From contig OZ024766.1 of assembly GCA_964016885.1 (NCBI GenBank), positions 15,376,001 to 15,440,000 on the forward strand: DNA of 64,000 nucleotides, read 5' to 3'. Below are positions 17,781 to 61,854 of this stretch, in pieces. Origin of the DNA: Eledone cirrhosa. Lineage: Eukaryota. The notes beneath the pieces are model-generated. The model searched no databases. It had not been told where the DNA came from and saw only the letters and a list, made by a program, of their open reading frames with translations. The position numbers were made by a program, and so were the translations under genes. Every line of letters begins with the position of its first letter. Within the stretch, counting starts at the first letter, position 1.

Positions 17781-17865
17781 GATGGATTCTATATGTATTT
17801 AAAAAGGAAGGCATGTCACACGTTTTGTCTCGCTGAATCTCCCTGAGAACTACGTAAAAACTAGT

Positions 17866-18793
17866 GACTATCAGACATAGTGTATCTAGGACTACATTAT
17901 CTAATGTACAGTACAGTAGTTAGTATTAGTGGCTATCAGGCATAGTATATCTAGGACTACATTACCTAATGTACAATATAGTAGTTAGTATTAGAGGCTA
18001 TCAGGCATAGTGTATCTAGGACTACATTATCTAATGTACAGTACAGTAGTTAGTATTAGTGGCTATCAGACATAGTGTATCTAGGACTACATTATCTAAT
18101 GTACAGTACAGTAGTTAGTATTAGTGGCTATCAGACATAGTGTATCTAGGACTACATTATCTAATGTACAGTACAGTAGTTAGTATTAGTGGCTATCAGA
18201 CATAGTGTATCTAGGACTACATTATCTAATGTACAGTACAGTAGTTAGTATTAGTGGCTATCAGACAGTGTATCTAGGACTACATTATCTAATGTACAGT
18301 GTAGTAGTTAGTATTAGTGGCTATCAGACATAGTGTATCTAGGACTACATTATCTAATGTACAGTACAGTAGTTAGTATTAGTGGCTATCAGACATAGTG
18401 TATCTAGGACTACCTTATCTAATGTACAATATAGTAGTTAGTATTACTGGCTATCAGACATAGTGTATCTTGGAATACATTATCTAATGTACAATATAGT
18501 AGTTAGTATTATTGGCTATCAGGCATAGTGTATCTAGGAATACATTACCTATTGTACAGTGTAGTAGTTAGTATTAGTGGCTATCTGACATAGTGTATCT
18601 AGGACTACATTACCTAATGTACAGTACAGTAATCAGTATTAGAGGCTATCAGACATAGTGTATCTAGGACTACATTATCTAATGTACAGTACAGTAGTTA
18701 GTATTAGTGGCTATCAGGCATAGTGTATCTAGGACTACATTATCTAATATACAGTACAGTAGTTAGTATTAGTGGCTATCAGGCATAGTGTAT
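17866..18793. repeat. 65-bp satellite (ggctatcagacatagtgtatctaggactacattatctaatgtacagtacagtagttagtattagt), about 14 units
   Basis: Units start at 17866, 17931, 17996, 18061 and so on. Confidence 0.95.
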
Positions 18794-22586: not shown

Positions 22587-23166
22587 TACCCATCTGCCAG
22601 ATAGTTGAACGTTCGAAAGTATATTCTTTCCTTATCAAAATTAACGGCTGAGCAGCCTAATTTGCATATTGAGTGAGTTAAATCGGTCAGGCATCAAATT
22701 TGTGTTCTTTTATTTTGTTTTTGATATGCTACCAAGGATTGGGGGTTAGAGTTGTGTTTGCATTCCTGTCCAGTTGTTATATGGTTTGGATGGCTATTCT
22801 AGTAGGCAGATATGAAGCAGGAGGTGCTATTGTTGCTGACATACTAGGGATGGTAAGTAGGTTAAGGTATCAAATTACCAGAGGGGTCAGTCATCACCCC
22901 ACCCCCCGTTCCTATATGTTAAAGAATTTGTTCGAATAATCTACTTATTTTTTTGTTTATTTGAACTTTGTTTATTTGTTTGAACTACATAGCTATATAT
23001 CCAGGCTGTGTATTATTAGAGAGGGTGATTCTTGTGTAACTATGTAAGGATGCATTAAATGTATAGATTTAGTCATTATGTTCAGCTCTAGGTGGAAGTT
23101 AGCATGGAACGTGTTAACTATCTAATCTAAGAAAAGTTTTAGATATTTTATGCATACAAGTATTAA

Positions 23167-23379
23167 CTCTTTAGCATTTACATTACTCTGTAATGTATTT
23201 TCTCTGTAAAGTCTTTACCTCACATAATAATCTCACATAATATCAAATCCACAAGATTTTGATATTATTTATTTTGAGAACAATACCTTAACATAAGTAT
23301 GAGCAGCCAGTTACGGCTGGTTTGAACAGAAAAAGGTGAGAGAATTCTGGCCGGATATGGCCGGTTTAAATGCTAAAGG
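23167..23379. mobile_element. TTAA-specific (piggyBac-type) MITE, unit-length copy
   Basis: ttaa|c(t)ctttagcattta...taaatgctaaagg|ttaa. Same family as 26863-27590, 29701-42563, 42856-43076 and 61855-62323. Confidence 0.85.
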
Positions 23380-24075
23380 TTAAAGTGGTCAGAGCCTTTG
23401 TTAATTACTTCCTGTCTCCTATTAATAATGTGTTGAGCTTCCGTTGTACAGAGATCACAGCCACATGAAAAAGGATTCGCATAAATATGGAAATGCATTT
23501 GTGAGAATACGCCAAGAAAACGAGTACTGTACCTGGTTCTGTTTTAGCCTCCTTATGATTTAGCATAATTTCGGATAGCGCTGTGCTTCTTCTTCTGTCT
23601 ATCCAGTTAAATGAGTGCTGATTGTACCATTTAACATACATACATATGTACATATATACATACATTCCATCAGTCAACGCGATCAGTCGCATATTTTGGC
23701 GTGGGAGACTATTTATTAAATTTAAGATGAATACTATCTCCGACAGTAATGTCACAACTACAGCCAGGTTGAATAACTGGTTATTCTTCTAACTATCCCT
23801 TCTGAAGACACCTTTTATTCGAATTCGTAGAGATATCCGACTAAATACATAATTCATTTTACAAGGATTTGCTACAAACAGCATGGCTGAACACAACATC
23901 AACAAGAAAATTAAGGAAGTATCGAAGACAAATAACAAAGAAGGTAATCAAACTTTATTCAGTTGTAGCTACAGAAGAAACCGAAATTATAAACATATAT
24001 ACATACATATATACATACATATATACATACATACATACATAACCACCTTAAACTAAACAATTTTGTACCCTAGAA

Positions 24076-26365: not shown

Positions 26366-26862
26366 CTAGAAAGACAAACAATCTTAGTCATTATTTCAAT
26401 CTAGGGCAGTGGATTGGCAAAATCGGTGGAGCATCGAACACCATGCTTTGCGGCATAAAGTTATGGCCCTTTATGATCTGAGTTCAAATCCCGCCGAGGT
26501 TAACTTTGCCTTTCATCCTTACGGGGTCGATAAAATAAAGTACCAGTAATGCACTGGGTAATTGCTGGCCTTGTGCCAAAAGTAGAAACAATTATTTTAA
26601 TCAAGGGCGGTGGATTGGCAGTATCGTTAGAGTGTCGAACACCATGCTTTGCGGTATTGAGTTACGACCCTTTCCATTCTGAGTTCAAAACCTGCCAAAG
26701 TTAGCTTGGCCTTTCATCCTTACGGGGTCGATAAAATAAAGTACCAGTCACACACTGGGGTCATTTAAATCGACTTTCCCACGTCCCTTCAAATTGCTGG
26801 CCTTGTGCCAACAGTAGAAACAATTATTTCAATCTGCACTTTGACAATGCTGTTTATTTTAA

Positions 26863-27590
26863 CCCTTTAGCATTTACATTACCCTGTATTTACTATTGTA
26901 TTTTCATGGTAAAGGCTTTACCTCACATAATTATCTCACATAACATTTACATTACCCTGTATTTACTATTGTATTTTCATGGTAAAGGCTTTACCTCACA
27001 TAATTATCTCACATAACATTTACATTACCCTGTATTTACTATTGTATTTTCATGGTAAAGGCTTTACCTCACATAATTATCTCACATAGCATTTACATTA
27101 CTCTGTATTTACTATTGTATTTTCATGGTAAAGGCTTTACCTCACATAATTATCTCACATAGCATTTACATTACTCTGTATTTACTATTGTATTTTCATG
27201 GTAAAGGCTTTACCTCACATAATTATCTCACATAACATTTACATTACTCTGTATTTACTATTGTATTTTCATGGTAAAGGCTTTACCTCACATAATTATC
27301 TCACATAACATTTACATTACTCTGTATTTACTATTGTATTTTCATGGTAAAGGCTTTACCTCACATAATTATCTCACATAACATTTACCTTACTCTGTAT
27401 TTACTATTGTATTTTCATGGTTAAGGCTTTACCTCACATAATTATCTCACATAATATTGAATCTACAAGATTTTAATATTATTTATTTTGAGAAGAAAAC
27501 CTTAACATCAGTATGAGTGGCCAGTTGCAGCTGATTTGAACAGAGGTTAGAGAATTCTGGCCGGATATGGCCAGTTTAAATGCTAAAGGG
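26863..27590. mobile_element. TTAA MITE with an internal 73-bp unit amplified 8 times
   Basis: ttaa|ccctttagcattta...taaatgctaaaggg|ttaa. Units start at 26871, 26944, 27017 and so on up to 27382. Confidence 0.92.
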
Positions 27591-29264
27591 TTAAACTGTT
27601 TACATTCCATTATAATTTCATGTAAGAACCTTTGTTAAGTTATATTCCAAACCACCTGAAACTGCCCCAAGTTCTATGCTACAAAATTGTTTATTCCAAA
27701 GCCTTTATATTATCTAAAAATCTTCCATTTAATTTCATGTAAGAACCTTTGTTAAGTTACATTCCAAACCACCTGAAACTGCCCTTATTCCACTTTAAGT
27801 TTACGGTTCATTTCTTTTTCATTTAGAATTGTCTCCTGCAAGAACATAGATGAAAATGGATGAAAATGCACAAAAATTCAAACTGGTTATAATCAACAAG
27901 TAAAATCTTTTTCATTTTTTTTTTTTTTGGCATGGCATTGGAAAAGCATCACAGTGTCTAAAAAAGTCTGTCTTAAACCAGAAGGCTTGTTAGGCCAATG
28001 CTTATCTCGGTTTCATGGCATGAAGCAACTTGAAGTACAAGACACCTTACTGTGAAGGCACATGGCTTAGTGGTTAGAGCATTGGGCTTGCAATCGAAAG
28101 GTTGTGAGTTCAATTCTCGGACCAGGTGATGTGTTGTTTCCTTGAGCAAGACACTTTATTTCACATTGCTCCAGTTTACTCAGCTGTAGAAATGAAATGA
28201 TAGGACTGGGGTCCCTATCATTAAATTACCCTAGACACCTCCAACGAGATATACCTTGGAGGAGGCCAGCTAAACCTGCATATGTGTGAGCTGTAACAAC
28301 AACAACCTCGCTGGACAGGACACCAGTCCATCACAGTGTTAAACCTCCAGCTATTACTGGTACTCATTTTCAGCTATATAATACAATATATTTTTCGTTA
28401 GGCTGGTGCTTATCTCTGTTTCATGGCGTGAAGCGACTGGGAGTACAAGATTCCCCCCTGGACAGGACACCAGTCCATCACAGGGTTAAACCTCCAGCTA
28501 TTACTGGTACTCATTTTCAGCTGAGTATACTGGAGCAATGTGAAGTGAAGTGTTTTGCTCAAGAACACAACATCTAACCCAGCTCAGGAATTGAACCCAT
28601 GACATTATGATTCTAAGTCCAACACCCTTACCACTAGGCAATGCACCAAACTGTGCAACTCCTAAATATTTTTGTATCTCCTCGTGTTTGTGTTTTTGTA
28701 GTTTTTATGTCAAATGAATTCAGAGCATAATCGACATGTGATGATTTCAACTAAAACCTGTTTCCCTATAAATATGAAACACCCTAATATATATGTATAT
28801 ATGTTAAAGGTATATTATAAAGAGAAAGGACCTGCTGGCTGAGCTCTTGCTCTTTATAAAATAGCCATGCTCTACTACCGCGGGCTTTGTGTTGTGTTCT
28901 TGAGCAAGACACTTTATTTCACGTTGCTCCAGTTCACTCAGCTGTGGAAATGGGTTGCGATGTCACTGGTGCCAAGCTGTATCGGCCATTGCCTTTCCCT
29001 TGGACAATATCAGTGGCATAGAGAGGGGAGGCTGTTATGCATGGGCTACTGCTGGTCTTCCACAAAACAACCTTGCCCAGACTTGTGCCTTGGAGGGGAA
29101 CTTTCTAGACTCAAATTCTATGGTCATTCGTGACCGAAGGATCTCTTTACCTTTTACCCTTACTAACCCATGTATCGAATACTCTGTTCAGTAATGGTCT
29201 AACTAGTTTTAAACTGGTTCTATCCTGATTTATGTTAAAGGTATAAAGGTATCTATATACTTAC

Positions 29265-29465: not shown

Positions 29466-29860
29466 CTGGTAAGAAAGTTAAAACAAAAAACAAATAGCAA
29501 TGGTATTTGGTGGTGGTGGTGATGGTGGTGATGGTGGTGAGGAGGGAGGTTTGGGTAAAGTTTAGTCAAAAACTGATTGGCAAACATGGGCTTGGACCAG
29601 TGCAAGATTTAGGGCACATGAAGCCCTGTGCTAGTTATGTTATGAGGCCTCTTACTCGTAAAAAATTCATCATAAAAAATTGTGCCAAATTTAGAATTAA
29701 CCCTTTAGCATTTAAACCGGTTGTATTCGGCCAGAATTTTCTCAACTCTTTCTATTCAAACTGGCTGTAACTGGACACTCATACTTATATTAAGGTATTG
29801 TTCTCAAGATAAATAACATCAAAATCTCATAGATTCGATATTATGTGAGATAATTATGAG

Positions 29861-30075
29861 GGCGGTGGATTGGCAGTATCGGTAGAGGGTCAGACGCCAT
29901 GCTTTGCCGCATAGAGTTACGGCCCTTTATGATTTGAGTTCAATCCCGCCGAGGTTAACTTTGCCTTTCATCATTATGGGGTTGATAAAATAAAGTACCA
30001 GTTACTCACTAGGGTCGATTTAATCGACGTTCGCCCTTCCCCAAAATTGCTGGCCTTGTGCCTATATAAAAAACC
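29861..30075 (+). mobile_element. tRNA-derived SINE with a TSD of about 22 bp
   Basis: attatgtgagataattatgagg occurs at 29840-29861 and 30076-30097. Confidence 0.85.
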
Positions 30076-30745
30076 ATTATGTGAGATAATTATGAGGTAA
30101 AGCCTTTACTGTGAAAATACAATAGTATATATAGAGTAATGTAAATGTTATGTGAGATATTATGTGAGGTAAAGCCTTTACTGTGACAATACAATAGTAT
30201 ATATAGAGTAATGTAAATGTTATGTGAGGTATTATGTGAGGTAAAGCCTTTACTGTGAAAATACAATAGTATATATAGAGTAATGTAAATGTTATGTGAG
30301 ATATTATGTGAGGTAAAGCCTTTACTGTGACAATACAATAGTATATATAGAGTAATATAAATGTTATGTGAGATATTATGTGAGGTAAAGCCTTTACCAC
30401 AAAAATATAATAGTATATATAGAGTAATGTAAATGTTATGTGAGATATTATGTGAGGTAAAGCCTTTACTGTGACAATACAATAGTATATATAGAGTAAT
30501 GTAAATGTTATGTGAGATATTATGTGAGGTAAAGCCTTTACCACAAAAATACAATAGTATATATAGAGTAATGTAAATGTTATGTGAGATATTATGTGAG
30601 GTAAAGCCTTTACCATGAAAATACAATAGTATATATAGAGTAATGTAAATGTTATGTGAGGTATTATGTGAGGTAAAGCCTTTACTGTGACAATACAATA
30701 GTATATATAGAGTAATGTAAATGTTATGTGAGGTAAAGCCTTTAC
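30076..30745. repeat. 72-bp MITE-derived minisatellite (about 9 units here, 2 units less 7 bp at 36264-36400, 8 units at 41977-42552)
   Basis: Unit atgttatgtgagatattatgtgaggtaaagcctttactgtgaaaatacaatagtatatatagagtaatgtaa. The ORF track shows the matching 24-aa periodicity. Confidence 0.95.
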
Positions 30746-33700
30746 AACAAACGAAGTCCTCAATAGGGAGGGGGCATTAACATGGGTCGCACACACCCCG
30801 GAAAAAATGTGCAACCCTTCTCCTCAGGAGCACAAAGAGTAGGTGATTCCCTCGTCTCCTCTTTTTCCTCTTCTTTCACCTACAGGCTGATATAGAGAGA
30901 AGACCCATTCACTCTGGCCATTCTCCCTACTTTCACCCACCTTTCATAAAACTTGCTGGGGTAGAGCACCTCTCTCTCCATTCTGATCCTTCTTTTAAAA
31001 TGGTATTTGAAAAAGGGGACCAGTTGTTGGCCGGAGAGAAAGGTGTCTGACCTCAGCCCTTTCAGCCTCGTCCACCATACAACTTCTTTAGCTATGGCTA
31101 TCACACAGAGAAAAACCGCCTCTCCTTCGTTTTTGAAAGGGGGAGGCGGTTTGATCGTGACAATGGACTCGGTGGTCAACCGGATTGGTCCCACCTTCGA
31201 CAGTAGTCGTTCCACATAGCCCCACAGGTCAGCAATGCCTGGGCAGTGTACGAATGCGTGCGCAACGGTTTCGTCGTCATGCACGCATCTCGGACAGATC
31301 TTATTCAAAGGATCCCTACCCAAGCTCCCATGCCTGTGGAGCTTGTCTCGAACGGGTAGAGCCCCTCGGTAGCACTGCCAAGCCAGGGACTTTTGGAAGT
31401 TGTCCATCGGTCCAGGGCCAAACGTCCTACCGAACAGACTGGCCAGTTCATCTTCCTCCATGCCTAGAGCTTCTCCGAGAGCATCGTCGCACCTGCTGCG
31501 TACCAACCCTCTATAGAATGTCGAGGTGGAGTCTCCACTGATTGCCGGGTCCGCTTTCCAGAGGGCCGTGAGCGCCTGGGCACATTCAATGTGCCAGTCG
31601 CCCACTTTTCTCGGTCTTTGCTTGACCCATGATTGCAGCTCGGTGAGCGAGACGAGTCTGGGAAAGGCTCGCCTCACAAACGGGGCCCACACCGGTTGAC
31701 CGGTGAGGAATACCTGGAGGTGCCGTAGCCTTAATGCGTGTTTACGCATCTGTAGCCATGGCATCCCCAGCCCTCCTTTCGAAGGGTGTTGACAGCAGAT
31801 GGATCTCCTCACCAAAGGGGTCCGCTTGTTCCAAAGAAATTGGAACAGCGCGCACTCCATTTTGGCGAGTCTTTTCACTGGGCAAGGCATGACGGTCAAG
31901 CGGTAGTAGATGACGGATGCTATATAAGTATTCGCCACCTCCGCTCGACCTTTCAGGGATAGTTTGCACTGGGCCCACTTCTGGGTGAGTGCAAACACCC
32001 TGGCCGTTACCTCGTTCCAGTTTTTCTCCACCTGGAGGTCTGGTCCGAACGAGACCCCAAGTAGCTTCACCGGCCCCTCTGTCCAGCGTCCGACGACGTC
32101 GTTGGAGGGCATCGGTTTGCCTCTCCATGTTCCGAGTTGCAAACCGACGGACTTGTCCCGGTTCAGCTTGGCTCCTGTAAACCTTTCATATTCCTCCAGT
32201 AAGGTGCCAATTTGCGAGGTTTTCGACACCATTACTGTCACGTCATCGGCGTAGGCCGACGCCGCTTTCTGCAATCCCGGTTCCAAAGGGATGCCCTGCA
32301 ACCGCTCCAACTTCCGCAGTAGTGGCTCAAGAGCCAGCACATACAGAAGGGAGGAGAGAGGGCATCCCTGTCGGATGGATCGCATGATTTGGAATGGCTC
32401 CGAGAGGTGGCCGTTCACCTTGACCCTTGAGCAGACGTTGCTGCTGTGCATCGCAGCAATCCAACCCCTGAAAACGGGTCCGAAGCCTGCCGCCGCGAGC
32501 ACTGCATCCAGGTAACGATGGTCAACCCTATCGAAAGCTTTAGATTGATCCAAGTTGATCAGGGCCCCACCAAAGCCGGGTTCATTCCCTACCCTCTCTA
32601 TGATGTATCGCATAAGGTGGAGATTGTCGTGAATGGACCTGGACGGGATTGCGCATGTCTGCGCTTCTCCCACCAGGTTTCCGACGACAAGCGCCAACCT
32701 CTTCGCTAACACCTTGGCCAAAATTTTTAACTCTGCATTTAGCAGAGTTATGGGCCTGAAGTTACTTATGTCATCTCCCTTGTTCTCGTCCTTCCTCACC
32801 AGCGTAACTACGCCCTTGGTCACAGAACTGGGAATTCTCCCGTTCTGCTGCCAGTTGCAGTAGACCGCTTCGAGGATATCGGAGAACAAGTCCGACATTG
32901 CTACATATAGCTCGTATGGTAAACCATCGAGACCCGGGGATTTGCGTTTGCCGCATTGGCTCAGCGCCGCCCCTATCTCAGCAGCTAAAATTGGCCTTTC
33001 GCAGGACTTCGCCTCCCCGTCCGAGAGGCGCGGCAGACCGTCGAGGTATGGATTGAAATCCATAGTCACACCCGGCGTGCCCTCCATCCCGAACAGTTGT
33101 GCAAAGTGCCGCTGAAAGGCCGCACACATCTGCCCAGGTTCAAGGATCACACGCCCATCCTGGTCCTTCAAAGACCGAATCGTGGACTTGTTCCCACTTT
33201 TTGCCTCTGTCACTCGGGCCCAGCTCACAGCTTTGGCTCCCTCATTACCCAGAGCACGTATTTTACTTCTGACAACGCAGCCTTCATGCTTCACCTCAAA
33301 GAACTGGTCTAAGGCCATTCTTGATGCCAGCACGCCGGCTACATTGCCACACCTAATCGCCTCTTCTACTCTATCTACTAATTCCCTTTCCGTCTTGTTC
33401 CTATCCCTTGCTAATTCCTGACTAAAACCTATCGATTCTATTCTAATTGCTCTCTTAAGAGAGCTCCACCACCTGTTGTTGACAATTGCCCCTGTCAAAC
33501 TCTGCTTAACTAACGTGCTAATCCGTTTACTGTAAGCTTTGCTTGTCGGTAAGGACCAGTTCAGCTTCCAGTAACCGGGTCCCTGTCTATGGGTTCTATC
33601 AAGGTTGGCTATGTAGGTCACTAGCTTGTGATCCGAATAGTCAACCAGGAACATTTTTGGACAGCTAAATGTGTCCCTATCCTTCTCTCTAACTAGGACC

Positions 33701-36263
33701 CTATCTAGGTACGACCTAGATGTTCCGCTTCGATTGGTCCACGTCCATAGTGGTACAGTCGGAAAATCTAGTCGATATCTATCGGCCAGGTCAAATCGGC
33801 CGATTAACCTTTTGAGGCTTTTACACTCCCCTCTATTGGCACATGCCCCTACATAGTCCCAACGTGCATCCAGGATACCATTCCAGTCCCCCACTAAAAG
33901 CAAGGAGCGGGACGTTCCCAGAAAAGTTTCCAGACGTTGGAAGTATTCTGGCCGCGCTGCCCAAAAAGGGGCGTACACAGCAATTAGTCTAAGGGCTCCA
34001 CTTTCACTACTGCCGACGTCTAAAACCACCAGTCGACCCTACGGGTCCAGGTGCACCTTCTGTATGGCGAGGCCCAGGTGTTTTCACAGCAGAACGACAA
34101 CTCCACCCCCACCCCCCGGTTGACAGAGAAATGCGAAAATCTCAAAGTCATCGAAGAGGGGCGCCAGTTGGTGCTCGCTGCTGATCCTGGACTCGCAAAT
34201 AGCCATTACATCCATTCTATGTGACCTGAGATCGTTTAAAAGTTTGCCTTGTTTCCAAGACAGTCCCAGGCCACGTACATTCAGACACCCAACTCTTATA
34301 GCAGCCATGTTGGTTAAAAGAGGAAGGACCTACCTGTTCGGCTCCTGAGGAGAAGGTTGCACAATATCCATGGGCGTATTGGAGGGGTTGTTTGGTGGGG
34401 TGTTGTTCTGTGGTGGAGTGGGGGTGTTTGGTGAGGTGTGGGTGGGGAAACGTTTCAAGAGGGCGCGGTTATAGGGTCGAGTACATGTTTTCCCCACGTC
34501 CTCAGGAAAGTTCTCTCTTAGTTTTGCATAGGTGTCCATTGGGAGTCTTATCATTTTTAAATGCGGTTTGTTCCCGCGCTTGCAAAGAATTGCCCTTCAG
34601 TTTCCACCAAAGGGTCTTTGTGTATTGTTTTTACTAGTTCTTTGTTATTTGTGTTAATGTATATATACTGTTTTATTTGTGTTGTGTTTGTTTGTTGTTC
34701 TTGTGTGTGCTTACGTTTTGTTGTATGTGTTATGTTTTGGGGTGGGGCGGATTTTGTTTGTTCTGTTTGTTTTGTTTTTGTTGGTGGTTGTGTGTTTGTT
34801 TCGTTTATGTTCGAGTGGTGCTTTCTTTTTTTCCTTTTTACAGGTTGGAAGGGTCCCCCCTCTTCGTCACTAGGTGCCGTTTCAGCTGGGTCCTCGTCCG
34901 TGCTGTCGGGTAGTGGTGTATTTTGGGGTTTTGTTGTGTTTGTGTGTTTTGGGAGTTGTTTTGGGTGGGGCCGTGTCTTGTGTTATTTTTCCGTGTTGTT
35001 TTTGTTGTTGTTGTGGTGGTGGTGGAGGTGGTGGTGGCGGTGGTGGTGTGTGGGGTGTAAGCAAAAGAGCCTTTTTTTTTGTCAATTGAGGACAGGCAGC
35101 CCTTAGATGACCCCTGCTTGAACAGTAGTAACATATGGGCCTCCTACCCTCGGCTGAAATGTATATAAATGTTTCTCCATCAAGGGACACCCTCTGTGGT
35201 ATTCTAGCTATTCGTTCTGGTCTTATTTGGACCAGAACCTCCACGCTCAAACCGCCGAAAACATCTGTGGTGACTTCTCCTACTGAGAGGATTCCGTCCT
35301 CATCTCCTAAAAATCCTGTTAGTACCCAGGAAATGCATGCATTTGGCCGGATTCCGGAGACTCTTATTTTCTGCGTTCTTTTCCCTAAGTATGTGGGGAA
35401 AAATGTATGTAGCTTGGAAACAATTGGCGCCACAGAGTATTTCCTGGCCGTCAATTGATCCTTCATTAGGACCGTTATATTCCCATAGAGTGGCCCTTTT
35501 TGTATGAACGATATATCACTCCACACATTTTTTAGGACCAGCTCAATTTTCTTTTGGGGATAATTGAGCTGGTTTCCTTGTTATGCTGGAAATTGTTCTG
35601 AAAGATATCGTTCTTAGTGTCGTGTCTCTTTTGATTTCTTGTGGGGAGGTGATTGTGAAGTCTCCTCCTTCTTTGAAAGTTACATACTGTTTTGCTTCCT
35701 TCATCTTTTCTCTCAGAGTTGTAATGTCCAGTTGCTTGCAGGTCTATGTTTTCCGGACCGCCTGTGCAAAGGAGGCACCAGTAGTGGGTTCGCTTTGTTT
35801 GGTGTTATCGTTATTTTTTCCTTGGTTGGTGTTGTGACTATTGCTATTATTGTCATTGTTGTTTTTGTCTGCGTTTATGTGACTTTCTGGGTTTTCACCC
35901 ATTTTTACAATTTTTTCTTTTAATTCCGTGTTCCATGTTTCTTTTGCAGAAGTGAGGAGGGAAGACTTAGAGTCTTGTGCTTCTAGCTTCTCAGTATCAC
36001 CTTTCTTAGGGGGAGTGGCTTTCTCGTTAGGATGAGATGTGAAAATTCCATCCATTTCTATTAGTTTGCCGTAATAATTTTTAACTGGAAAATTCGCACC
36101 AAAAAGGGGCGAAAATAAATAAACTCAAAGTTTGACGACCAAGGCATGGGGTTAACGTATATTACAGTATAAAAAATTAATCAAAACTCACTTTTGAGTA
36201 AGTAAATCCAACTCGGTAGCCGAGCTTGTTCACACACGTCCACACACGTCTCTCGTATACGAG
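30746..36263 (-). mobile_element. L1/Tx1-clade non-LTR retrotransposon, copy A (ORF1 disrupted, stops near the ORF2 N-terminus, about 100 bp of 3' UTR lost)
   Basis: ORF1 fragments contain the zinc knuckle CYYCSSRGHLRAAC. ORF2 contains APE (GDWN, YLDR, SDH), RT (QGCPLS, YADD) and a CCHC finger (CPRC...HAFVHC). Confidence 0.95.
30880..34288 (-). pseudogene. ORF2 of copy A (APE-RT-CCHC); 1049 codons open from 34029 down to 30880, N-terminus (start at 34308) interrupted by stops
   Basis: ORFs 30880-34029 and 34084-34308, compared with the copy B ORF2. Confidence 0.85.
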
Positions 36264-36637
36264 ATGTTATGTGAGATATTATGTGAGGTAAAGCCTTTAC
36301 TGTGAAAATACAATAGTATATATAGAGTAATGTAAATGTTATGTGAGATATTATGTGAGGTAAAGCCTTTACTGTGAACATACAATAGTATATATAGAGT
36401 GGTTTCTTTATTTGCCACCAGGGCACAAAAGGTAGGGACAGATACAAGGGGGGAAGTTTACATATAATTAACGAGTACAAAAATATAACAATGAAATAAC
36501 AACAACAAACGAAGTCCTCAATAGGGAGGGGGCATTAACATGGGTCGCACATACCCCGGAAAAAATGTGCAACCCCTCTCCTCAGGAGCACAAAGAGTAG
36601 GTGCTTCCCTCGTCTCCTCTTTTTCCTCTTCTTTCAC

Positions 36638-39600
36638 CTACAGGCTGATATAGAGAGAAGACCCATTCACTCTGGCCATTCTCCCTACTTTCACCCACCT
36701 TTCATAAAACTTGCTGGGGTAGAGCACCTCTCTCTCCATTCTGATCCTTCTTTTAAAATGGTATTTGAAAAAGGGGACCAGTTGTTGGCCGGAGAGAAAG
36801 GTGTCTGACCTCAGCCCTTTCAGCCTCGTCCACCATACAACTTCTTTAGCCATGGCTATCACACAGAGAAAAACCGCCTCTCCTTCGTTTTTGAAAGGGG
36901 GAGGCGGTTTGATCGTGACAATGGACTCGGTGGTCAACCGGATTGCTCCCACCCTCGACAGTAGTCGTTCCACATAGCCCCACAGGTCAGCAATGCCTGG
37001 GCAGTGTACGAATGCGTGCGCAACGGTTTCGTCATCATGCACGCATCTCGGACAGATCTTATTCAAAGGATCTCTACGCAGGCTCCCATGCCTGTGGAGC
37101 TTGTCTTGAACGGGTAGAGCCCCTCGGTAGCACTGCCAAGCCAGGGACTTTTGGAAGTTGTCCATCGGTCCAGGGCCAAACGTCCTACCAAACAGACTGG
37201 CCAGTTCATCTTCCTCCATGCCTAGAGCTTCTCCGAGAGCATCGTCGCACCTGCTGCGTACCAACCCTCTATAGAATGTCGAGGTGGAGTCTCCACTGAT
37301 TGCCGGGTCCGCTTTCCAGAGGGCCGTGAGCGCCTGGGCACATTCAATGTGCCAGTCGCCCACTTTTCTCGGTCTTTGCTTGACCCATGATTGCAGCTCG
37401 GTGAGCGAGACGAGTCTGGGAAAGGCTCGCCTCACAAACGGGGCCCACACCGGTTGACCGGTGAGGAATACCTGGAGGTGCCGTAGCCTTAATGCGTGTT
37501 TACGCATCTTTAGCCATGATATCCCCAGCCCTCCTTTCGAAGAGTGTTGACAGCAGATGGATCTCCTCACCAAAGGGGTCCGCTTGTTCCAAAGAAATTG
37601 GAACAGCGCGCACTCCATTTTGGCGAGTCTTTTCACTGGGCAAGGCACGACGGTCAAGCGGTAGTAGATGACGGATGCTATATAAGTATTCGCCACCTCC
37701 GCTCGACCTTTCAGGGATAGTTTGCACTGGGCCCACACCCTGGCCGTTAACTCATTCCAGTTTTTCTCCACCTGGAAGTCTGGTCCGAACCAGACCCCAA
37801 GCAGCTTCACCGGGCCCTCTGTCCAGCGTCCGACGACGTCGTTGGAGGGCATCGGTTTGCCTCTCCATGTTCCGAGTTACAAATCGACGGACTTGTCCCG
37901 GTTCAGCTTGGCTCCTGTAAACCTTTCATATTCCTCCAGTAAGGTGCCGATCTCACCGATTTGCGAGGTTTTCGACACCATTACTGTCACGTCATCGGCG
38001 TAGGCCGACGCCGCTTTCTGCAATCCCAGTTCCAAAGGGATGCCCTGCAACCGCTCCAACTTCCGCAGTAGTGGCTCAAGAGCCAGCACATACAGTAGGG
38101 AGGAGAGAGGGCATCCCTGTCGGATGGATCGCATGATTTGGAACGGCTCCGAGAGGTGGCCGTTCACCTTGACCCTTGAGCAGACGTTGCTGCTGTGCAT
38201 CGCAGCAATCCGACACCTGAAAACGGGTCCGAAGCCTGCCGCCGCGAGCACTGCATCCAGGTAACGATGGTCAACCCTATCGAAAGCTTTAGATTGATCC
38301 AAGTTGATCAGGGCCCCACCAAAGCCGGGTTCATTCCCTACCCTCTCTATGATGTATCGCATAAGGTGGAGATTGTCGTGAATGGACCTGGAAGGGAATG
38401 CGCATGTCTGCGCTTCTCTCACCAGGTTTCCGACGACAAGCGCCAACCTCTTCGCTAACACCTTGGCCAAAATCTTTAACTCTGTATTTAGCAGAGTTAT
38501 GGGCCTGAAGTTACTTATGTCATCCCCCTTGTTCTCATCCTTCCTCACCAGCGTAACTACGTCCTTGGTCACAGAACTGGGAATTCTCCCGTTCTGCTGC
38601 CAGTTGCAGTAGACCGCTTCGAGGATATCGGAGAACAAGTCCGGCATCGCTACATATAGCTCGTATGGTAGACCATCGAGACCCGGGGATTTGCGTTTGC
38701 CGCATTGGCTCAGCGCCGCCCCTATCTCAGCAGCTGAAATCGGCCTTTCGCAGGACTTCGCCTCCGCGTCCGAGAGGCGCGGCAGACCGTCGATGTATGG
38801 ATTGAAATCCATAGTCTCACCCAGCGCGCCGCCCCTCTCGAACAGTCGTGCAAAGTGCCGCTGAAAGGCCGCACACATCTGCCCAGGTTCAAGGATCACA
38901 CGCCCATCCTGGTCCTTCAAAGACCGAATCGTGGACTTGTTCCCACTTTTTGCCTCTGTCACTCGGGCCCAGCTCACAGCTTTGGCTCCCTCATTACCCA
39001 GAGCACGTATTTTACTCCTGACAACGCAGCCTTCATGCTTCACCTCAAAGAACTGGTCTAAGGCCATTCTTGATGCCAGCACGCCAGCTACATTGCCACA
39101 CCTAATCGCCTCTTCTACTCTATCTACTAATTCCCTTTCCGTCTTGTTCCTATCCCTTGCTAATTCCTGACTAAAACCTATCGATTCTATTCTAATTGCT
39201 CTCTTAAGAGAGCTCCACCACCTGTTGTTGACAATTGCCCCTGTCAAACTCTGCTTAACTAACGAGCTAATCCGTTTACTGTAAGCTTTGCTTCGCGGTA
39301 AGGACAAGTTCAGCTTCCAGTAACCGGGTCCCTGTCTATGGGTTCTATCAAGGTTGGCTATGCAAGTCACTAACTTGTGATCCGAATAGTCAACCATGAA
39401 CATTTTTGGACAGCTAAATGTGTCCCTATCCTTCTCTCTAACTAGGACCCTATCTAGGTACGACCTAGATGTTCCGCTGCGATTGGTCCACGTCCATAGT
39501 GGTACAGTCGGAAAATCTAGTCGATATCTATCGGCCAGGTCAAATCGGCCGATTAACCTTTTGAGGCTTTTACACCCCCCTCTATTGGCACATGCCCCTA

Positions 39601-40057
39601 CATAGTCCCAACGTGCATCCAGGATACCATTCCAGTCCCCCACTAAAAGCAAGGAGCGGGACGTTCCCAGAAAAGTTTCCAGACGTTGGAAGTATTCCGG
39701 CCGTGCTGCCCAAAAAGGGGCGTACACAGCTATTAGTCTAAGGGCTCCACTTTCACTACTGCCGACGTCTAAAACCACCAGTCGACCCTCCGGGTCCAGG
39801 TGCACCTTCTGTATGGCGAGGCCCAGGTGTTTTCGCAGCAGAACGACAACTCCACCCCCACCCCCCGGTTGACAGAGAGATGCGAAGATCTCAAAGTCGT
39901 CGAAGAGGGGCGCCAGTTGGTGCTCGCTGCTGATCCTGGACTCGCAAATAGCCATTACATCCATTCTATGCGACCTGAGATCGTTTAAAAGTTTGCCTTG
40001 TTTCCAAGACAGTCCCAGGCCGCGTACATTCAGACACCCAACTCTTATATCAGCCAT
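36638..40057 (-). pseudogene. ORF2 of copy B (APE-RT-CCHC) with a premature stop at 37877-37879
   Basis: ORFs of 726 aa and 404 aa are collinear with the copy A ORF2. Confidence 0.88.
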
Positions 40058-40078
40058 GTTGGTTAAAAGAGGAAGGAC

Positions 40079-41800
40079 CTACCTGTTCGGCTCCTGAGGA
40101 GCAGGTTGCACAATATCCATGGGCGTATTGGAGGGGTTGTTTGGTGGGGTGTTGTTCTGTGGTGGAGTGGGGGTGTTTGGTGAGGTGTGGGTGGGGAAAC
40201 GTTTCAAGAGGACGCGGTTATAGGGTCGAGTACATGTTTTCCCCACGTCCTCAGGAAAGTTCTCTCTTAGTTTTGCATAGGTGTCCATTGGGAGTCTTAT
40301 CATTTTTAAATGCGGTTTGTTGGCCGCGCTTGCAAAGAATTGCCCTTCAGTTTCCACCAAAGGGTCTTTGTGTATTGTTTTTACGAGTTCTTTGTTATTT
40401 GTGTTAATGTATGTATACTGTTTTATTTGTGTTGTGTTTGTTTGTTGTTCTTGTGTGTGCTTACGTTTTGTTGTATGTGTTATGTTTTGGGGTGGGGCGG
40501 ATTTTGTTTGTTCTGTTTGTTTTGTTTTTGTTGGTGGTTGTGTGTTTGTTTCGTTTATGTTCGAGTGGTGCTTTCTTTTTTTCCTTTTTACAGGTTGGAA
40601 GGGTTCCCCCTCTTCGTCACTAGGTGCCGTTTCAGCTGGGTCCTCGTCCGTGCTGTCGGGTAGTGGTGTATTTTGGGGTTTTGTTGTATTTGTGTGTGTT
40701 TTGGGAGTTGTTTTGGGTGGGGCCGTGTCTTGTGTTATTTTTCCGTGTTGTTTTTGTTGTTGTTGTGGTGGTGGTGGTGGTGGCGGTGGTGGTGTGTGGG
40801 GTGTAGGCAAAAGAGCCTTTTTTTTTGTCAATTGAGGACAAGCAGCCCTTAGATGACCCCTGCTTGAACAGTAGTAACATATGGGCCTCCTACCCGCGGC
40901 TGAAATATATATAAATGTTTCTCCATCGAGGGACACCCTCTGTGGTATTCTAGCTATTCGTTCTGGTCTCATTTGGACCAGAACCTCCACGCTCAAACCG
41001 CCGAAAACGTCTGTGGTGACTTCTCCTACTGAAAGGATTCCGTCCTCGTCTTCTAAAAATCCTGTTAGTACCCAGGAAATGCATGCATTTGGCCGGATTC
41101 CGGAGACCCTTATCTTCTGCGTTCTTTTCCCTAAATATGTGGGGAAAAATGTATGTAGCTTGGAAACAATTGGCGCCACAGAGTATTTCCTGGCCGTCAA
41201 TTGATCCTTCATTAGGACCGTTATATTCCCATAGAGTGGCCCTTTTTGTATGAACGATATATCACTCCACACATTTTTTAGGACCAGCTCAATCTCTTTT
41301 TGGGATAATTGAGTTGGTTTCCTTGTTATGTTGGAAATTGTTCTGAAAGATATCGTTCTTAGCGTCGTGTCTCTTTTGATTTCTTGTGGGGAGGTGATTG
41401 TGAAGTCTCCTCCTTCTTTGAAAGTTACATACTGTTTCGCTTCCTTCATCTTTTCTCTCAGAGTTGTAATGTCCAGTTGCTTGCAGGTTTGTGTTTTCCG
41501 GACCGCCTGTGCAAAGGAGGCACCAGTAGTGGGTTCGCTTTGTTTGGTGTTATCGTTATTTTTTCCTTGGTTGGTGTTGTGACTATTGCTGTTATTGTCG
41601 TTGTTGTTTTTGTCTGCGTTTATGTGACTTTCTGGGTTTTCACCCATTTTTACAAATTTTTCTTTTAATTCCGTGTTCCATGTTTCTTTTGCAGAAGTCA
41701 GGAGGGGAGACTTAGAGCCTTGTGCTTCTAGCTTCTCTGTATCACCTTTCTTAGGGGGCGTGGCTTTCTCGTTAGGATGAGATGTGAAAATTCCATCCAT
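40079..41800 (-). CDS. ORF1 (gag-like nucleic-acid-binding protein, 573 aa, single CCHC zinc knuckle)
   Basis: Intact ORF with CX2CX4HX4C and a low-complexity P/T/Q/K tail, ending 21 nt upstream of the ORF2 ATG. Confidence 0.88.
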   Translation of the reverse strand: MDGIFTSHPNEKATPPKKGDTEKLEAQGSKSPLLTSAKETWNTELKEKFVKMGENPESHINADKNNNDNNSNSHNTNQGKNNDNTKQSEPTTGASFAQAVRKTQTCKQLDITTLREKMKEAKQYVTFKEGGDFTITSPQEIKRDTTLRTISFRTISNITRKPTQLSQKEIELVLKNVWSDISFIQKGPLYGNITVLMKDQLTARKYSVAPIVSKLHTFFPTYLGKRTQKIRVSGIRPNACISWVLTGFLEDEDGILSVGEVTTDVFGGLSVEVLVQMRPERIARIPQRVSLDGETFIYISAAGRRPICYYCSSRGHLRAACPQLTKKKALLPTPHTPPPPPPPPPQQQQKQHGKITQDTAPPKTTPKTHTNTTKPQNTPLPDSTDEDPAETAPSDEEGEPFQPVKRKKRKHHSNINETNTQPPTKTKQTEQTKSAPPQNITHTTKRKHTQEQQTNTTQIKQYTYINTNNKELVKTIHKDPLVETEGQFFASAANKPHLKMIRLPMDTYAKLRENFPEDVGKTCTRPYNRVLLKRFPTHTSPNTPTPPQNNTPPNNPSNTPMDIVQPAPQEPNR

Positions 41801-42855
41801 TTCTATTAGTTTGCCGTAATAATTTTTAACTGGAAAATTCGCCCCAAAAAGGGGCGAAAATAAATAAACTCAAAGTTTGACGACCAAGGCAAGGGGTTAA
41901 CGTATATTACAGTATAAAAAATTAATCAAAACTCACTTTTGAGTAAGTAAATCAACACACGTCTCTCGTATACGAGATGTTATGTGAGATATTATGTGAG
42001 GTAAAGCCTTTACCACAAAAATACAATAGTATATATAGAGTAATGTAAATGTTATGTGAGGTATTATGTGAGGTAAAGCCTTTACTGTGAAAATACAATA
42101 GTATATATAGAGTAATGTAAATGTTATATGAGGTATTATGTGAAGTAAAGCCTTTACTGTGAAAATACAATAGTATATATAGAGTAATGTAAATGTTATG
42201 TGAGGTATTATGTGAGGTAAAGCCTTTACCACAAACATACAATAGTATATATAGAGTAATGTAAATGTTATGTGAGAGATATTGTGAGGTAAAGCCTTTA
42301 CTGTGAAAATACAATAGTATATATAGAGTAATGTAAATGTTATGTGAGGTATTATGTGAGGTAAAGCCTTTACCACAAAAATACAATAGTATATATAGAG
42401 TAATGTAAATGTTATGTGAGATATTATGTGAGGTAAAGCCTTTACTGTGAAAATACAATAGTATATATAGAGTAATGTAAATGTTATGTGAGGTATTATG
42501 TGAGGTAAAGCCTTTACTGTGACAATACAATAGTATATATAGAGTAATGTAAATGCTAAAGAGTTAAAACATAACTTAACAAATGTTCTTACATAAAGTT
42601 AGGATAGAAGGTTTTAAGATAGTTATAAACATTTTATCATAAACTAAGATGCGTGGCTCTGTGTTTAGAGTATTCGCCTCACAATCGTAAGGTCATGAGT
42701 TTGTTTACCAGCGGAGTGTTGTGTCCTTGAGCAAGACACTTTATTTCATATTATTCCAGTTCACTCAGCTGGCAAAAATGAGTTGTACCTGTAATTCAAA
42801 GGGTCAGCCTTGTCACACTCTGTGTCATGCTGAATCTCCCTGAGAGCTATGTTAA

Positions 42856-43076
42856 CCCTTTAGCATTTAAACTGGCCATATCCGGCCAGAATTCTCTCAC
42901 ATCTTTCTGTTCAAACCAGCCATAACTGGCTGCTCATACTTATGTGAAGGTATTGTTCTCAAAATATATAATATCAAAATCTCATAGATTTGATATTATG
43001 TGAGATAATTATGTAAGATAAAGCCTTTACCACAAAAATGTAATATTAGATATGGAGTAATGTAAATGCTAAAGGG
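42856..43076. mobile_element. TTAA MITE, unit length (221 bp), inserted into a SINE
   Basis: Perfect TIR ccctttagcattta/taaatgctaaaggg, with TTAA duplicated at 42852-42855 and 43077-43080. Confidence 0.92.
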
Positions 43077-43313
43077 TTAAGGGTATGCATGTCTGTGGAA
43101 TACTCAGCCACTTGCACGTTAATTTCATGAACAGGCTGTTCCAGTAATAGTGTCAACTGGAACACTCATTGTTGTAACCGACAGTGCCAGTTCAAGTTCA
43201 AGGGGTAGAGTTGATTCAGACAGTTTGGTATCCAAACAGTTAAACAGTTAGGAACATGTGTGTTTCATGCCAATTATAAATAAATGTCTTTAGTAAATGG
43301 TGACATTCTAGAA

Positions 43314-48590: not shown

Positions 48591-48959
48591 TAATATATAT
48601 ATATAATAAATATATAATATATATATAATTGTTTCTACTTTTGGCACAAGGCCAGCAATTACACAGTTCATTACTGGTACTTTATTTTATCGACCCACTA
48701 AGGATGAAAGGCAAAGTTAACCTTGACGGCATTTGAACTCAGGCCGTAAAGGGACATAACTATGCTGGAAAGCATGGCGTCCGACCCTCTACCGATACTG
48801 CCAATTCACCGCCCCTATATATATATATATATATATTTCTCACTCTTAGTGCGGCTGTTACTTAAATATAAAGTATGTATACATACATACATATATGTAT
48901 ACAGGCGTACAGTAGTATGTATATATATATATATACATATATGCACACATATATATATG

Positions 48960-51900
48960 TACGTATGGCACTCAATGACAATGTCACAGACAAAGACAAA
49001 TTCACCTCCTGCTGCAAGACGAGAATACAAGGACCCCTCTTTATTTCAGACACAGATGACCAACAAAATCCCGTCTCCCACACCCCTCCCTGCCCCTCCA
49101 ACCCATCCATCCCACCCTCCCAACTTCAGAGTTGGTACCATGAACGTAGGCACATTGAAAGGTCGCTCAAATGAGGTTGTAGAGATGCTTGAACGTAAAG
49201 AAGTTGATGTTTGTTGTATTCAAGAGGCTAGGTGGGGAGGGGGATCTGCCAAATTCATCGTGGGTAAAGAACGATGCTATAAACTTTTCTGGGTGGGAAA
49301 TGACAACGGACAGGGTAGTGTAGGAATTATGTTAGCTGAAAAATGGGTAGATAAGGTAATGACGTAAATATAGTGAATGACAGAATAATTGAATTAAGAC
49401 TAGTTCTAAATAGAATTACTATGACAATAATATCCGCTTATGCACCCCAATCTGGTCTACCTGATGTTATAAAGGACAGGTTCTATTAGATGCTAATGCA
49501 CACTACCTCCCAAATAACCGACAGCGACTACTTAATTATTGCTAGCGATCTAAACAGTCACGTTGGACAACATAGTGATGGCTATGATGGAATCCATGGA
49601 GGTTGGAAATAGAAATGAGGAGGGTTTCAGAATCCTGGAATTCTGTGATGCAAATAGCCTAACTATATGTAACACAAACTTCAAAAAACGTGAAAACCAC
49701 TTGATCACCTATAGATCAGGGGAACACGCCAGCCAGATAGATTATATCCTTACTAGAAGACGGGACAAAATGTCTGTTGTAAACTCTAAATCCCTCCCCC
49801 GTGAAGAATGCCCCTCCCAACATCGCCTAGTAGTTAGTGACCTCATAGTCAGGAATAGACGTACTCGACTACAGAGGAGGCCTACCTTGAGGAGAAGAAT
49901 ATGGAAGTTGAAGGACCCCATAGCCAGTGACAAATTTAAAAGCTTATTATTTGTTGCCTTTGACAATAAGGAAGAGCAATTAGAGACGTGCAATAGAGAG
50001 GAACAGTGGCAATTCTTGAAAGTGAACCTGCTGAAAGCAACGGATGAAATCTGTGGCTGGAGCAGACCTATTGGCAGGAGGAGAGTAACTTGGTGGTGGA
50101 ACAGTGAGGTGGAAGAGACAATCAAGGGAAAAAAGCAGGCTTGGAAAGAATGGCAGGATGGGGGAAGTAGAGAGCACTATCAAGTGGCCAGGAGAGAAGC
50201 TAGGAGACAAGTGTACCTTGCAAAAAGGGTAGCAGAGGATAGAAAGTTCAAGCATGTTCTGCAACGTGAGGACCAAAAACGTGAGGTGTTCAGGATTGCT
50301 AGACAATGTGTCAAGGAAAACCGTGATATTGTCGGGGAGAAGTGTGTCCGTAATGATAATGGTGTACTTGCGCTCATTGATACTGATAAGCCTGGAAGTG
50401 TCACTACGAGAGACTATTAAATGAGGAGAATAAGTGGGAAAAAGATAGTCTGCCCCAAATCGATCCAATGGTGCAAGGTAAAGGTAGTATAATAAGTAAG
50501 GCAATCAAAGATATGAAGGCAGGCAAGGCAACTGGCCCTTCGGAGGTAGTTGCTGAGATGTTGAAGGCATCTGGTATGGCGGGACACACTATGGTCACCC
50601 GTATAGTTAACCAAGTAATACAGAATGGGGTCATACCGAAAGACTGGCGTAGCAGCATCATCATTAACTGCTACAAGGGTAAAGGGGATGCTCTAGATAG
50701 GGGAAACTATAGAGGCATTAAGTTATTTGATCAGGTCATGAAGGTCACAGAAAGAGTAATAGCGCAACTAATCAGAGAGCGAATTGATCTAGATGAAATG
50801 CAGTTTGGGTTTGTGTCAGGTAAAAGTACCACAGACGCTCTTTTCCTTGTACGACAACTACAAGAGAAGTACCTAGCTAAAAGTAAACCCCTCTACTTTG
50901 CTTTTGTAGACTTGGAGAAAGCTTTTGACAGAGTCCCCCGCTCCATTATCTGGTGGGCTCTTAGAAAACTAGATGTAGATGAATGGCTGGTGAGAGCTAT
51001 ACAAGCTATGTATAAACAGTCAGTAAGGTTAGAATTAACAATGAATATTGTGAAGAATTTAGTGTAAAAGTTGGCGTTCATCAAGGCTCTGTCCTTAGCC
51101 CCCTCTTATTTATTATTGCCCTTCAGGCTATAACAGAGGAGCTCAAGACCCGCTGCCCATGGGAACTCCTATACGCAGATGATCTAATGCTCATAGTTGA
51201 ATCAATGGCTGAACTAGAGAAGAAATTCGAAACATGGAAGCATGGCCTAGAATCAAAAGGCCTTAAAGTTAACTTGTCTAAGACTAAAGTTCTAGTTTGT
51301 AGAAAGGAAAATAGGGCACAGGTGCCCTCAAGGAAATGGCCATGCTCAGTGTGTAGGAAAGGAGTAGGCAGAAATTCCATTTTATGTCCCAAATGCAAAG
51401 TATGGGTACATAAAAGATGTAGTGGGATCACAGGTAAACTATCTAAGAACGTAGACTTTATATGTGGCCAATGCTCAGGTGCAATAAGTAGCAAGTGTAC
51501 AAAGGATACTAGCTCCTTCTATTGCCTTGATGGTTCTATAGAAATAGTAGACACTTTCCGTTACCTGGGTGACGAAATCAACAGTGGTGGAGGGTGTTCT
51601 GAAAGTACAGTAGCCAGAGTCAGAACGGGATGGAAAAAGTTCAGAGTGCTTATACTGCTGTTGGCCACAAAAGGTTTCTCTCTAAAAATGAAAGGCAGAT
51701 TGTATGATGCATGTATACGAACATCAATGCTACATGGCAGTGAGACATGGGCATTACCTGCAGAGGACCTGCGTAGTCTGGAAAGGAATGAAGCATGCAT
51801 GCTCCGTTGGATGTGTAATAGTAATATACGTGAACGGCAAAGCATATATGAACTAAGTGAGAAATTAGGAATAAGAGGGATCAGATGCTGTTTACTTGAG

Positions 51901-52486
51901 AGAAGACTACATTGGTATGGCCATGTGATGCTCATGAAAGACGACAGTTGTATAAAAAAGTGCAGGGCGATCAAAATTGATGGTAGTTACGGTAAACCCA
52001 GAAAAACCTGGGATGATCTGATAAATTCCGACCTTACACACTTACATCTCTCTAAGACAATGTCTCTGGACTGAGATCTTTGGTACTATGCAGTAATAGA
52101 GAAGACCCGCCTTGCCTATGTACAAAGTGAAACCTACAGTCAGTAGGCACCTCTTAACCAAATATACACCCCAATAAACTACCCCTACCCTATCCTCCCA
52201 CTCCCACCAACAGTATGAGAAAATGAGATCGAGTTCGTGTAGGTGTCACGGAAAAAAAAAAAAAAACACACAGTCCACGCTGTAATGTGGTCGTGTAGGT
52301 AACACGGTAAAAAGTTCCCAGTTCTACACTGTAAATGTGGTTGGTGTTAGGAAGGGCAGCCAGCCGTAGAAAACCTGCCAGATAGTTCTATATGAGTGAG
52401 ATACGGTCACCCGACCAGCCTTGCCTCAACTCCCGTCTAACCCATGCTAGCGTGGAAAATGGACGTTAAACGAAGATGATGATGAT
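48960..52486 (+). mobile_element. RTE-clade LINE copy C, near full length, multiply frameshifted
   Basis: APE (VGTMNVGTL, SQIDY, QHRLV), RT (DLEKAFD, YADD), Cys-rich C-terminus, 3' UTR ending in (gat)n. Confidence 0.93.
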
Positions 52487-61751: not shown

Positions 61752-61854
61752 TTTTATAAAATGCTTGAAAACAACTTAGAAAAAATGTTAATCAAAATCC
61801 AAATTTAATCCCAAAGAGAGGAAATTGGAACATTATCCACTGAAAGTTGCTTAA

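Follow-up and report, generated by a model that had tools for sequence, protein, structure and literature searches.

Two long interspersed nuclear elements (LINEs) lie head-to-tail within one miniature inverted-repeat transposable element (MITE) in a 64,000-nucleotide stretch of the Eledone cirrhosa genome (assembly GCA_964016885.1, contig OZ024766.1, positions 15,376,001 to 15,440,000 of the forward strand; hereafter the window, in whose coordinates all positions are given). Copy A (30744-36263) and copy B (36401-41976) are both on the minus strand and about 97% identical. There is very little doubt that they belong to a real, strongly site-specific and recently active Tx1-like family, whose members sit at a fixed position of the 72-bp minisatellite unit carried by the MITE. 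For the 5' end of these elements, a short leader of target sequence carried by the LINE RNA and joined to the next unit by homology is regarded, with fair confidence, as the most likely mechanism. An initial annotation, made from the letters of the window, had described this head-to-tail pair, with both 5' ends abutting the same base of the unit (tacgag|atgttatgtgag at 36263/36264 and 41976/41977) and separated by two units minus 7 bp. All of this was confirmed, the spacer being 137 bp long (36264-36400, plus strand) and ending at the 3' junction of B (AGAGT|GG). This 3' junction is visible at B alone, A being without about 100 bp of its 3' end and without the end of the adjoining unit.

Target specificity, class and activity of the family

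Exact motif counts were made over the 3.0-Gb assembly. The 302 exact 5' ends include 290 that are followed by the exact 12-bp start of the unit. At the 3' side, 334 exact ends were found with a motif devoid of target prefix and 332 matches with a similar motif bearing the TAGAGT-RR target prefix, the two motifs differing slightly so that the ratio is approximate. Control patterns, read backwards, gave 0 matches in the same assembly, indicating that the LINE-unit junctions are not due to chance. When loci were taken in genome order with the flank-free 3' motif, 30 of 30 adjoined a unit. With an internal query, 30 of 30 ended at TATAGAGT or at a form of this motif with one base changed, 28 of them beside a full unit, one beside a partial unit and one beside non-MITE DNA, and all fetched 5' junctions (78/78) run on into a unit. 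A Tx1 family has been counted as target-specific when one sequence type makes up more than 20% of its flanks (PMC4494074), and the values obtained here (290/302 at the 5' side, about 332/334 at the 3' side, 30/30 unbiased loci) exceed that threshold. The sequence-specific targeting proposed in the initial annotation from two copies thus holds genome-wide.

The stock of targets comprises 16,351 exact left ends of the MITE, 4,827 exact right-terminal sites and 30,178 exact internal junctions, the latter bearing out the earlier suggestion that arrays multiply the landing sites. Approximately 1% of the target sites are occupied by a LINE. Single-unit MITEs are common (22 of 30 sampled), and despite this no 5' junction is without a following unit (0/78, as compared to about 14% expected from the terminal-site counts, p 2e-5), implying that in practice the LINE targets the point where two tandem units meet. 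A net loss of 7 bp is found at almost every junction. The possibility that the LINE causes the arrays was considered and is not supported. The family numbers at least about 300 copies, and about 300-450 in all, against 30,178 junctions, and LINE-free arrays exist (window 26859-27594), the many unoccupied sites showing that arrays do not need the LINE. At L099 (7564-8340) and L100 (7594 onward, both on the window-oriented strand) about 560 bp of unrelated sequence stand at the same AGAGT site, followed in L099 by the LINE's own 5' 150 nt or so and by units. This insert is a candidate non-autonomous or chimeric element that would use the head and the target of the LINE.

The intact copy L088 encodes a 580-aa product from its first open reading frame (ORF1), in which a CCHC knuckle is weakly recognisable. 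Its ORF2 product has 1145 aa, with apurinic/apyrimidinic-like endonuclease (APE), reverse transcriptase (RT) and zf-RVT domains. Pfam searches with L088 and the window frames gave Exo_endo_phos (the N-terminal APE), RVT_1 and a C-terminal zf-RVT in ORF2. In ORF1 of L088 the zf-CCHC match has an E-value of 0.0069, which is below the curated cut-off, and the Atlas neighbours are zf-CCHC proteins at 0.92. A separate ORF1 with a CCHC knuckle is a trait of the Tx1 clade. A link between ZCCHC3 and Tx1, hinted at by the Atlas match, was not used as no supporting paper was found. Four vertebrate proteins, named YTX2 or 'transposon TX1 149 kDa' in their source, match ORF2 with 295-327 bits, as compared with 185 bits for human L1 ORF2p and 59-85 bits for R2 proteins. 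The best named relative, a protein of Argonauta hians, reaches 68% over the RT region. Because the scores are higher against the YTX2/TX1-named proteins than against human L1 or R2, the family likely belongs to the Tx1 clade, in agreement with the initial annotation; it counts against this placement that the names scored against are automatic annotations. The restriction-like endonuclease and single ORF of the R2 clade were not found in L088, which has an APE domain and two ORFs.

Both ORFs are open in 4 of 58 long copies, among which the mean pairwise distance is 1.7%. Variants common to at least four copies show a ratio of non-synonymous to synonymous changes (dN/dS) of 0.10 in ORF1 and 0.16 in ORF2, whereas singleton variants are near-neutral (0.86 and 0.74, respectively). 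This combination of selected shared variants and near-neutral singletons points to an active family with dead-on-arrival copies. Both copies in the window are dead. Copy A has premature stops at codons 75 and 90 of ORF2 (30880-34308, minus strand; endonuclease, RT and zf-RVT) and a frameshifted ORF1 (34330-36055, minus). Copy B, which bears a 32-bp deletion near its 5' end, has one premature stop at codon 727 (37877-37879) of ORF2 (36638-40057, minus) and an open ORF1 of 573 aa with one CCHC knuckle (40079-41800, minus).

The 5' junction and its putative leader

The true 5' junction probably lies elsewhere than the visible one. Positions 1-23 of the unit are variant in 6 of 63 junction units and in 334 of 633 other units (p 7e-12; the duplicates L117 and L085 and repeated identical arrays left out), while positions 24-50 vary normally. 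In arrays where at most 25% of the other units are reference-like over positions 1-23, the junction unit matches the reference in 11 of 11 cases for about 2 expected, and over all arrays in 51 of 54 for 27 expected (L117, L115, L113, L205 and loci with fewer than four other units left out). Positions 24-65 on the right side, as well as the left junction unit, match instead their own array (p 2e-4 each). Since positions 1-23 are invariant and positions 24-65 local, the LINE likely brings about 23-29 nt of target with it, joined by homology. In the window, these near-invariant positions, likely the 5' leader, lie at 36264-36286 beside copy A and at 41977-41999 beside copy B (minus strand). The initial annotation had copy B replacing 7 bp of the unit, which is correct as the net sequence outcome; as to the boundary itself, it would more likely be situated 23-29 bases into the next unit.

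The absence of target-site duplication (TSD) noted earlier was upheld, left and right junction units being identical over positions 24-65 in 1 of 46 informative full-length copies (L117, L115 and loci without a left or right unit left out). A 65-bp TSD, which in a perfect array looks like a 7-bp loss, was considered on this account and is excluded by the local unit variants that differ between the two sides. Routine 5' transduction of whole units was likewise rejected, positions 24-65 being local, and is kept as an occasional event. The GG, GA or AA at the 3' junction had been taken as proof of 3' read-through, an argument that was given up in view of the similar dinucleotide at the end of related families.

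Copies collected with 3' queries keep their 5' end in 30 of 33 cases, versus 1 of 11 in the related (GATA)n family (p 1e-6), and the nearly equal counts of exact 5' and 3' motifs are in keeping with mostly full-length copies. In a fold predicted for L088 (z -2.6), unit positions 23 to 1 pair exactly with the first 34 nt of the element (36230-36286, minus strand, in the window), and the fit of this putative hairpin to the invariant zone 1-23 is suggestive.

Three copies lie off target. L115 is an intact LINE in a 43-bp satellite with 2 units on its 5' side, L113 lies in non-MITE DNA with 17 units on that side, and L205 lies in a CAC/CAT repeat with 2.7 units, suggesting that longer RNAs may sometimes carry units to new sites. 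The satellite at L115 consists of 43-bp units built from the right end of the MITE, with an inverted block.

In the mechanism favored here, the LINE endonuclease would nick the unit after ...TATAGAGT on the plus strand, and target-primed reverse transcription of the LINE RNA would proceed from the nick. This RNA would begin about 23-29 nt inside the next unit, and not at or inside ...CTCGTATACGAG. Its 5' end would then be joined to the next unit by homology, via strand invasion, leaving no TSD, and occasional longer read-through RNAs would bring whole units along.

Several points weigh against this mechanism. Scanning 551 bases against Rfam (to E 10) yielded two chance-level hits and no ribozyme, although a divergent ribozyme could escape such a scan, and the hairpin is a modest prediction at the z value given above. 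The invariance of positions 1-23 could stem partly from the protein choosing perfect targets. The only cleanly 5'-truncated copy, L102 (L102:4348, window-oriented strand), is rejoined in a manner that fits a TSD of about 15-17 bp, so that the insertion of truncated copies may involve a staggered cut of the ordinary kind. The off-target copies could be flank deletions or the product of circle integration, and an empty site for L113 was looked for and not found. Finally, the samples are biased towards copies close to B.

The strongest alternative, close to the picture given by the initial annotation, retains the same site-specific family without a carried leader. The protein would read a long site that extends across the unit junction and includes positions 1-23 of the next unit, cut the second strand 7 bp away and thereby delete AATGTAA. 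Such a scheme agrees with the exact 7-bp net loss and accounts both for the requirement of a following unit and for the scarcity of variants at positions 54-65 of the nicked unit (2/56, p 0.01). A parallel exists in other site-specific LINEs, for which deletions of target by upstream cuts of the top strand have been discussed (PMC4640811). However, it explains neither the units carried to non-MITE sites at L113, L115 and L205 nor the strong full-length bias. It is also hard to reconcile with junction units which are reference-like over positions 1-23 or 1-25 and local beyond, in arrays where almost no unit of this kind exists, as in L096, with 1 of 32, and in L210, whose junction unit is without the 25A found in 9 of 9 neighbours. 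It is therefore held to be rather improbable, and the homology-joined leader is preferred.

Separate insertion of the two copies

A second alternative would have the LINE enter an array once or a few times and then spread as DNA, through MITE transposition with its cargo, gene conversion or unequal crossing-over. DNA copying predicts uniform ends and full-length copies, and it is true of some loci. L076 holds three copies 0.1-0.3% apart with identical 16-unit spacers, a plain duplication, and L116/L117, the only identical composite, has the same outer flank and is thus a segmental duplicate, as are the window's own paralogues. As the main route, on the other hand, it is largely refuted and was given little credence, shared variants being under purifying selection. 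Among the 22 closest LINE pairs (from 56 copies), 21 lie in arrays differing in unit variants or counts, and LINEs 0.07-0.35% apart occupy arrays that are unlike in their variants, unit counts and outer flanks. Within a locus, the left and right arrays are more alike than arrays of other loci (21 loci, p 2e-4). The flanking array is local on both sides save for 23 nt on one side, and no composite having the same array with new outer flanks was seen.

Tandems are common, 15 loci out of the 60 fetched having a second junction. Of 16 adjacent pairs, some of them from the same cluster, 13 differ by 0.7-4%. Tandems like A and B arise mostly by repeated insertion into one array and sometimes by unequal crossing-over. 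Runs of five or six LINEs in tandem are found at C1:4.22-4.26 Mb and at C10:40.72-40.75 and 41.38-41.43 Mb, and on the three longest contigs (C1, C2 and C3) the listed LINE copies are concentrated in the direction of the contig ends.

With regard to A and B themselves, about 2% substitutions separate them, at a dN/dS of 0.20 in ORF1 (p 5e-6) and 0.42 in ORF2 (p 6e-4), well below the value of about 1 which the initial annotation associated with a simple duplication. The hand alignment of ORF1 that it reported (35101-35400 versus 40847-41146) was reproduced, with 11 substitutions, of which 8 are synonymous and 3 change an amino acid. The block difference FGMEGTPGVT/FERGGALGET in ORF2 is real as well, A's version being unique among 58 aligned copies. 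A ranks 51st nearest of 57 to B, 50 other copies being nearer to B, and the two stand on different branches, many of A's differences from B being also found at other loci. The low dN/dS and the fact that A is not nearest to B indicate two separate insertions, as had been claimed. Contig C16 carries the same A-spacer-B tandem at 99.2-99.4% identity, with flanks at 99.6-99.7%. This contig may represent either the other haplotype or a duplicated region, and the repetition of the tandem argues against a one-off misassembly. No contig of the three sequencing runs examined spans the A-B tandem. That A and B are one insertion duplicated locally, as happens elsewhere in the family, or an assembly artefact is thus very improbable in view of the dN/dS, the differences found at other loci, the 50 nearer copies and the tandem on C16.

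The host MITE spans from the TTAA at 29697 to the TTAA at 42567. Its TTAA ends and terminal inverted repeats (TIRs) starting with CCC are as in a non-autonomous piggyBac-type MITE, and solo copies of about 200-230 bp with varied flanks read TTAA-CCCTTTAGCATTTA ... TAAATGCTAAAGGG-TTAA. On the plus strand it begins with TTAA and the left TIR (CCCTTTAGCATTTA, 29697-29714), of the kind counted above as exact left ends. The left arm, delimited by BLAST against solo MITE copies in the window, follows until the first unit begins (29715-29861). Within this first unit lies an insertion (29862-30075) with a 22-bp duplication on either side (29840-29861 and 30076-30097), which is presumed to be a short interspersed nuclear element (SINE) from its dispersed copies in the window and its resemblance to octopus SINEs. 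The left array of about 9 units, found with TRF (30077-30745), ends in a unit shortened by the same deletion that took the 3' end of copy A. The right array holds 8 units (41977-42552) and is followed by the right TIR and TTAA (42550-42567), with a G>A change at 42562. The ends of the MITE, described as intact in the initial annotation, are consequently not so, the right TIR being mutated and the left arm broken by the SINE-like insertion. Its proposal that the MITE could move the LINE cargo is not supported, since no such case was found among 56 copies.

The window contains other MITE copies at 23163-23383, 26859-27594, 42852-43080, 61851-62065 and 62062-62327, either single-unit or carrying a 73-bp array free of LINEs. 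Loci L067, L103, L109, L116, L117 and L122 have the window's SINE-bearing left arm or right flank in common, and the window locus is one of a family of segmental duplicates that vary in the LINEs and units they contain. Other minisatellites are found at 3645-11632, 16227-17006, 17862-18793, 59609-59950 and 60834-61753, with units of 28, 24, 65, 49 and 61 bp. Broken frames at 48750-52074 and 58788-59264 (plus and minus strands) and a broken pol frame at 53395-56121 (plus) resemble, by their motifs, RTE-type LINEs and a Ty3/gypsy-type pol, respectively.

Related families, known systems and significance

The initial annotation was silent on the likely element-carried leader, on the full-length bias and on relatives that target microsatellites. 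For relatives at about 80-87% nucleotide identity (L164-L204), 30 loci were inspected by eye, of which 25 end in (GATA)n or (TA)n runs, the rest being one other repeat, one unclear case and three without a recognisable end. Most of these relatives are truncated at their 5' side, and stacks are frequent. In families at 67-72% amino-acid identity (L274-L319), 30 of 30 loci end in (TAA)n, also with tandem stacks; L310, which is without the 3' motif, was left out. These families are apparently young and form two subfamilies that have ORF2 in common and differ upstream of it; their tandems are head-to-tail, and they have in common with the MITE family a short palindrome close to the 5' end. A quick protein tree joins the MITE family and the GATA families as sisters (support 87). 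The (TAA)n families being more distant in identity, targeting of microsatellites is likely ancestral and that of the MITE derived, so that the MITE-targeting family would descend from microsatellite-targeting ancestors. Speaking against this polarity, the MITE family is sister to the GATA families and not nested in them, and the argument depends on (TAA)n families that are placed outside by identity and are absent from the tree. The target core of the 72-bp unit, TATATATAGAGT, is itself microsatellite-like. In a second organism (run X5, compared with window 36403-36468), one contig resembles the LINE 3' end and is preceded by (GATA)n, probably a GATA-type relative, and MITE units occur at low depth.

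The endonucleases of the two related families are 77% and 62% identical to that of the MITE family, and the predicted specificity loop is nearly constant across the three families and their three targets (TWTNRSGTSRS, TWANRSGSSRS and TWTNRIGSSRS). This near-constancy is offered in support of a tentative idea, to which only a minor weight is given, that the switch from microsatellite to MITE repeat came about mainly through the RNA and not the nuclease. The element would have captured target sequence at its ends, a hairpin would hold the 5' piece and fix its length, base-pairing would select and seal the site, and longer transcripts would seed 72-bp units at new sites as future landing pads.

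Tx1L of Xenopus laevis, which makes a TSD of 23 bp, inserts into internal tandem repeats held by its host element Tx1D. Insertion of Tx1 (Tx1L) in the non-autonomous piggyBac element Tx1D, of Tx1-Mar in Mariner-N4_AMi and of Tx1-9_AMi in Harbinger elements is described in PMC4494074. The novelty claimed by the initial annotation is thereby reduced, the targeting itself being real. Like Tx1L in Tx1D, the present family is an APE LINE with a specific target site inside a non-autonomous element of piggyBac type. It differs by its invertebrate host, its other target sequence, its likely target-derived leader, its full-length copies without TSD, and an endonuclease loop that aligns without gaps to that of human L1, whereas the loop of Tx1L, whose sequence specificity has been described, is reported as longer (PMC1950540). 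The crocodilian elements Tx1-Mar, Tx1-9_AMi and SINEU-3 resemble it in their preference for non-autonomous Mariner or Harbinger elements, and SINEU-3 also in its tandem insertions, a hitch-hiking test being reported for it as well. The association of SINEU-3 with its target is 90%, with a 16-bp TSD (PMC4494074), in contrast to about 96-99% of ends at one base, no TSD and a tandem-unit junction as target in the MITE family. Kibi and Koshi, Tx1-clade families with (TC)n and (TTC)n as targets, are listed among those inserting in microsatellites (PMC4494074), and are matched in E. cirrhosa by the sister and outgroup families with their (GATA)n and (TAA)n targets, while the MITE family uses a complex 72-bp unit with a microsatellite-like core. 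Junctions without TSD or with deletions are known in Utopia (PMC4640811).

At its 5' end the family recalls R2Bm, whose RNA retains 27 nt of target from the upstream side, which full-length insertion requires, with joining thought to involve strand invasion (PMC6895275). Here the putative upstream leader is deduced from DNA junction statistics and off-target copies. R2 has a restriction-like endonuclease, one ORF, ribosomal DNA as target and a ribozyme like that of hepatitis delta virus, as opposed to APE, two ORFs and no Rfam ribozyme match in the MITE family. The comparison suggests a LINE that is R2-like at its 5' end but not an R2. In Octopus vulgaris, 13 recently active L1-Tx1 families have been surveyed (PMC13282606). 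The word 'target' is absent from the main text of that survey, and passages of PMC10294476, PMC8869645 and PMC9004415 gave nothing on insertion targets. Among titles and abstracts, in a search with most subscription journals and Repbase outside its scope so that prior naming is possible, no account was found of a LINE family in a MITE unit or of a target-derived 5' leader in Tx1. A Tx1 element living in another transposon is already known, and the fixed MITE-unit junction with a likely target-derived leader is likely new.

Site-specific LINEs are few and serve as models and as tools for targeted insertion. The near-100% specificity for a single base, with mostly full-length and TSD-free copies apparently sealed by a target-derived leader, corresponds to what has been described for R2, with its other class of endonuclease, and makes the 5' joining of an APE LINE directly testable. 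Moreover, three related families with three targets and intact copies in one genome form a natural series on the change of APE targets. Taken together, MITE, minisatellite and LINE constitute a three-level stack of parasites, and a possible route by which LINEs may disperse satellite units.

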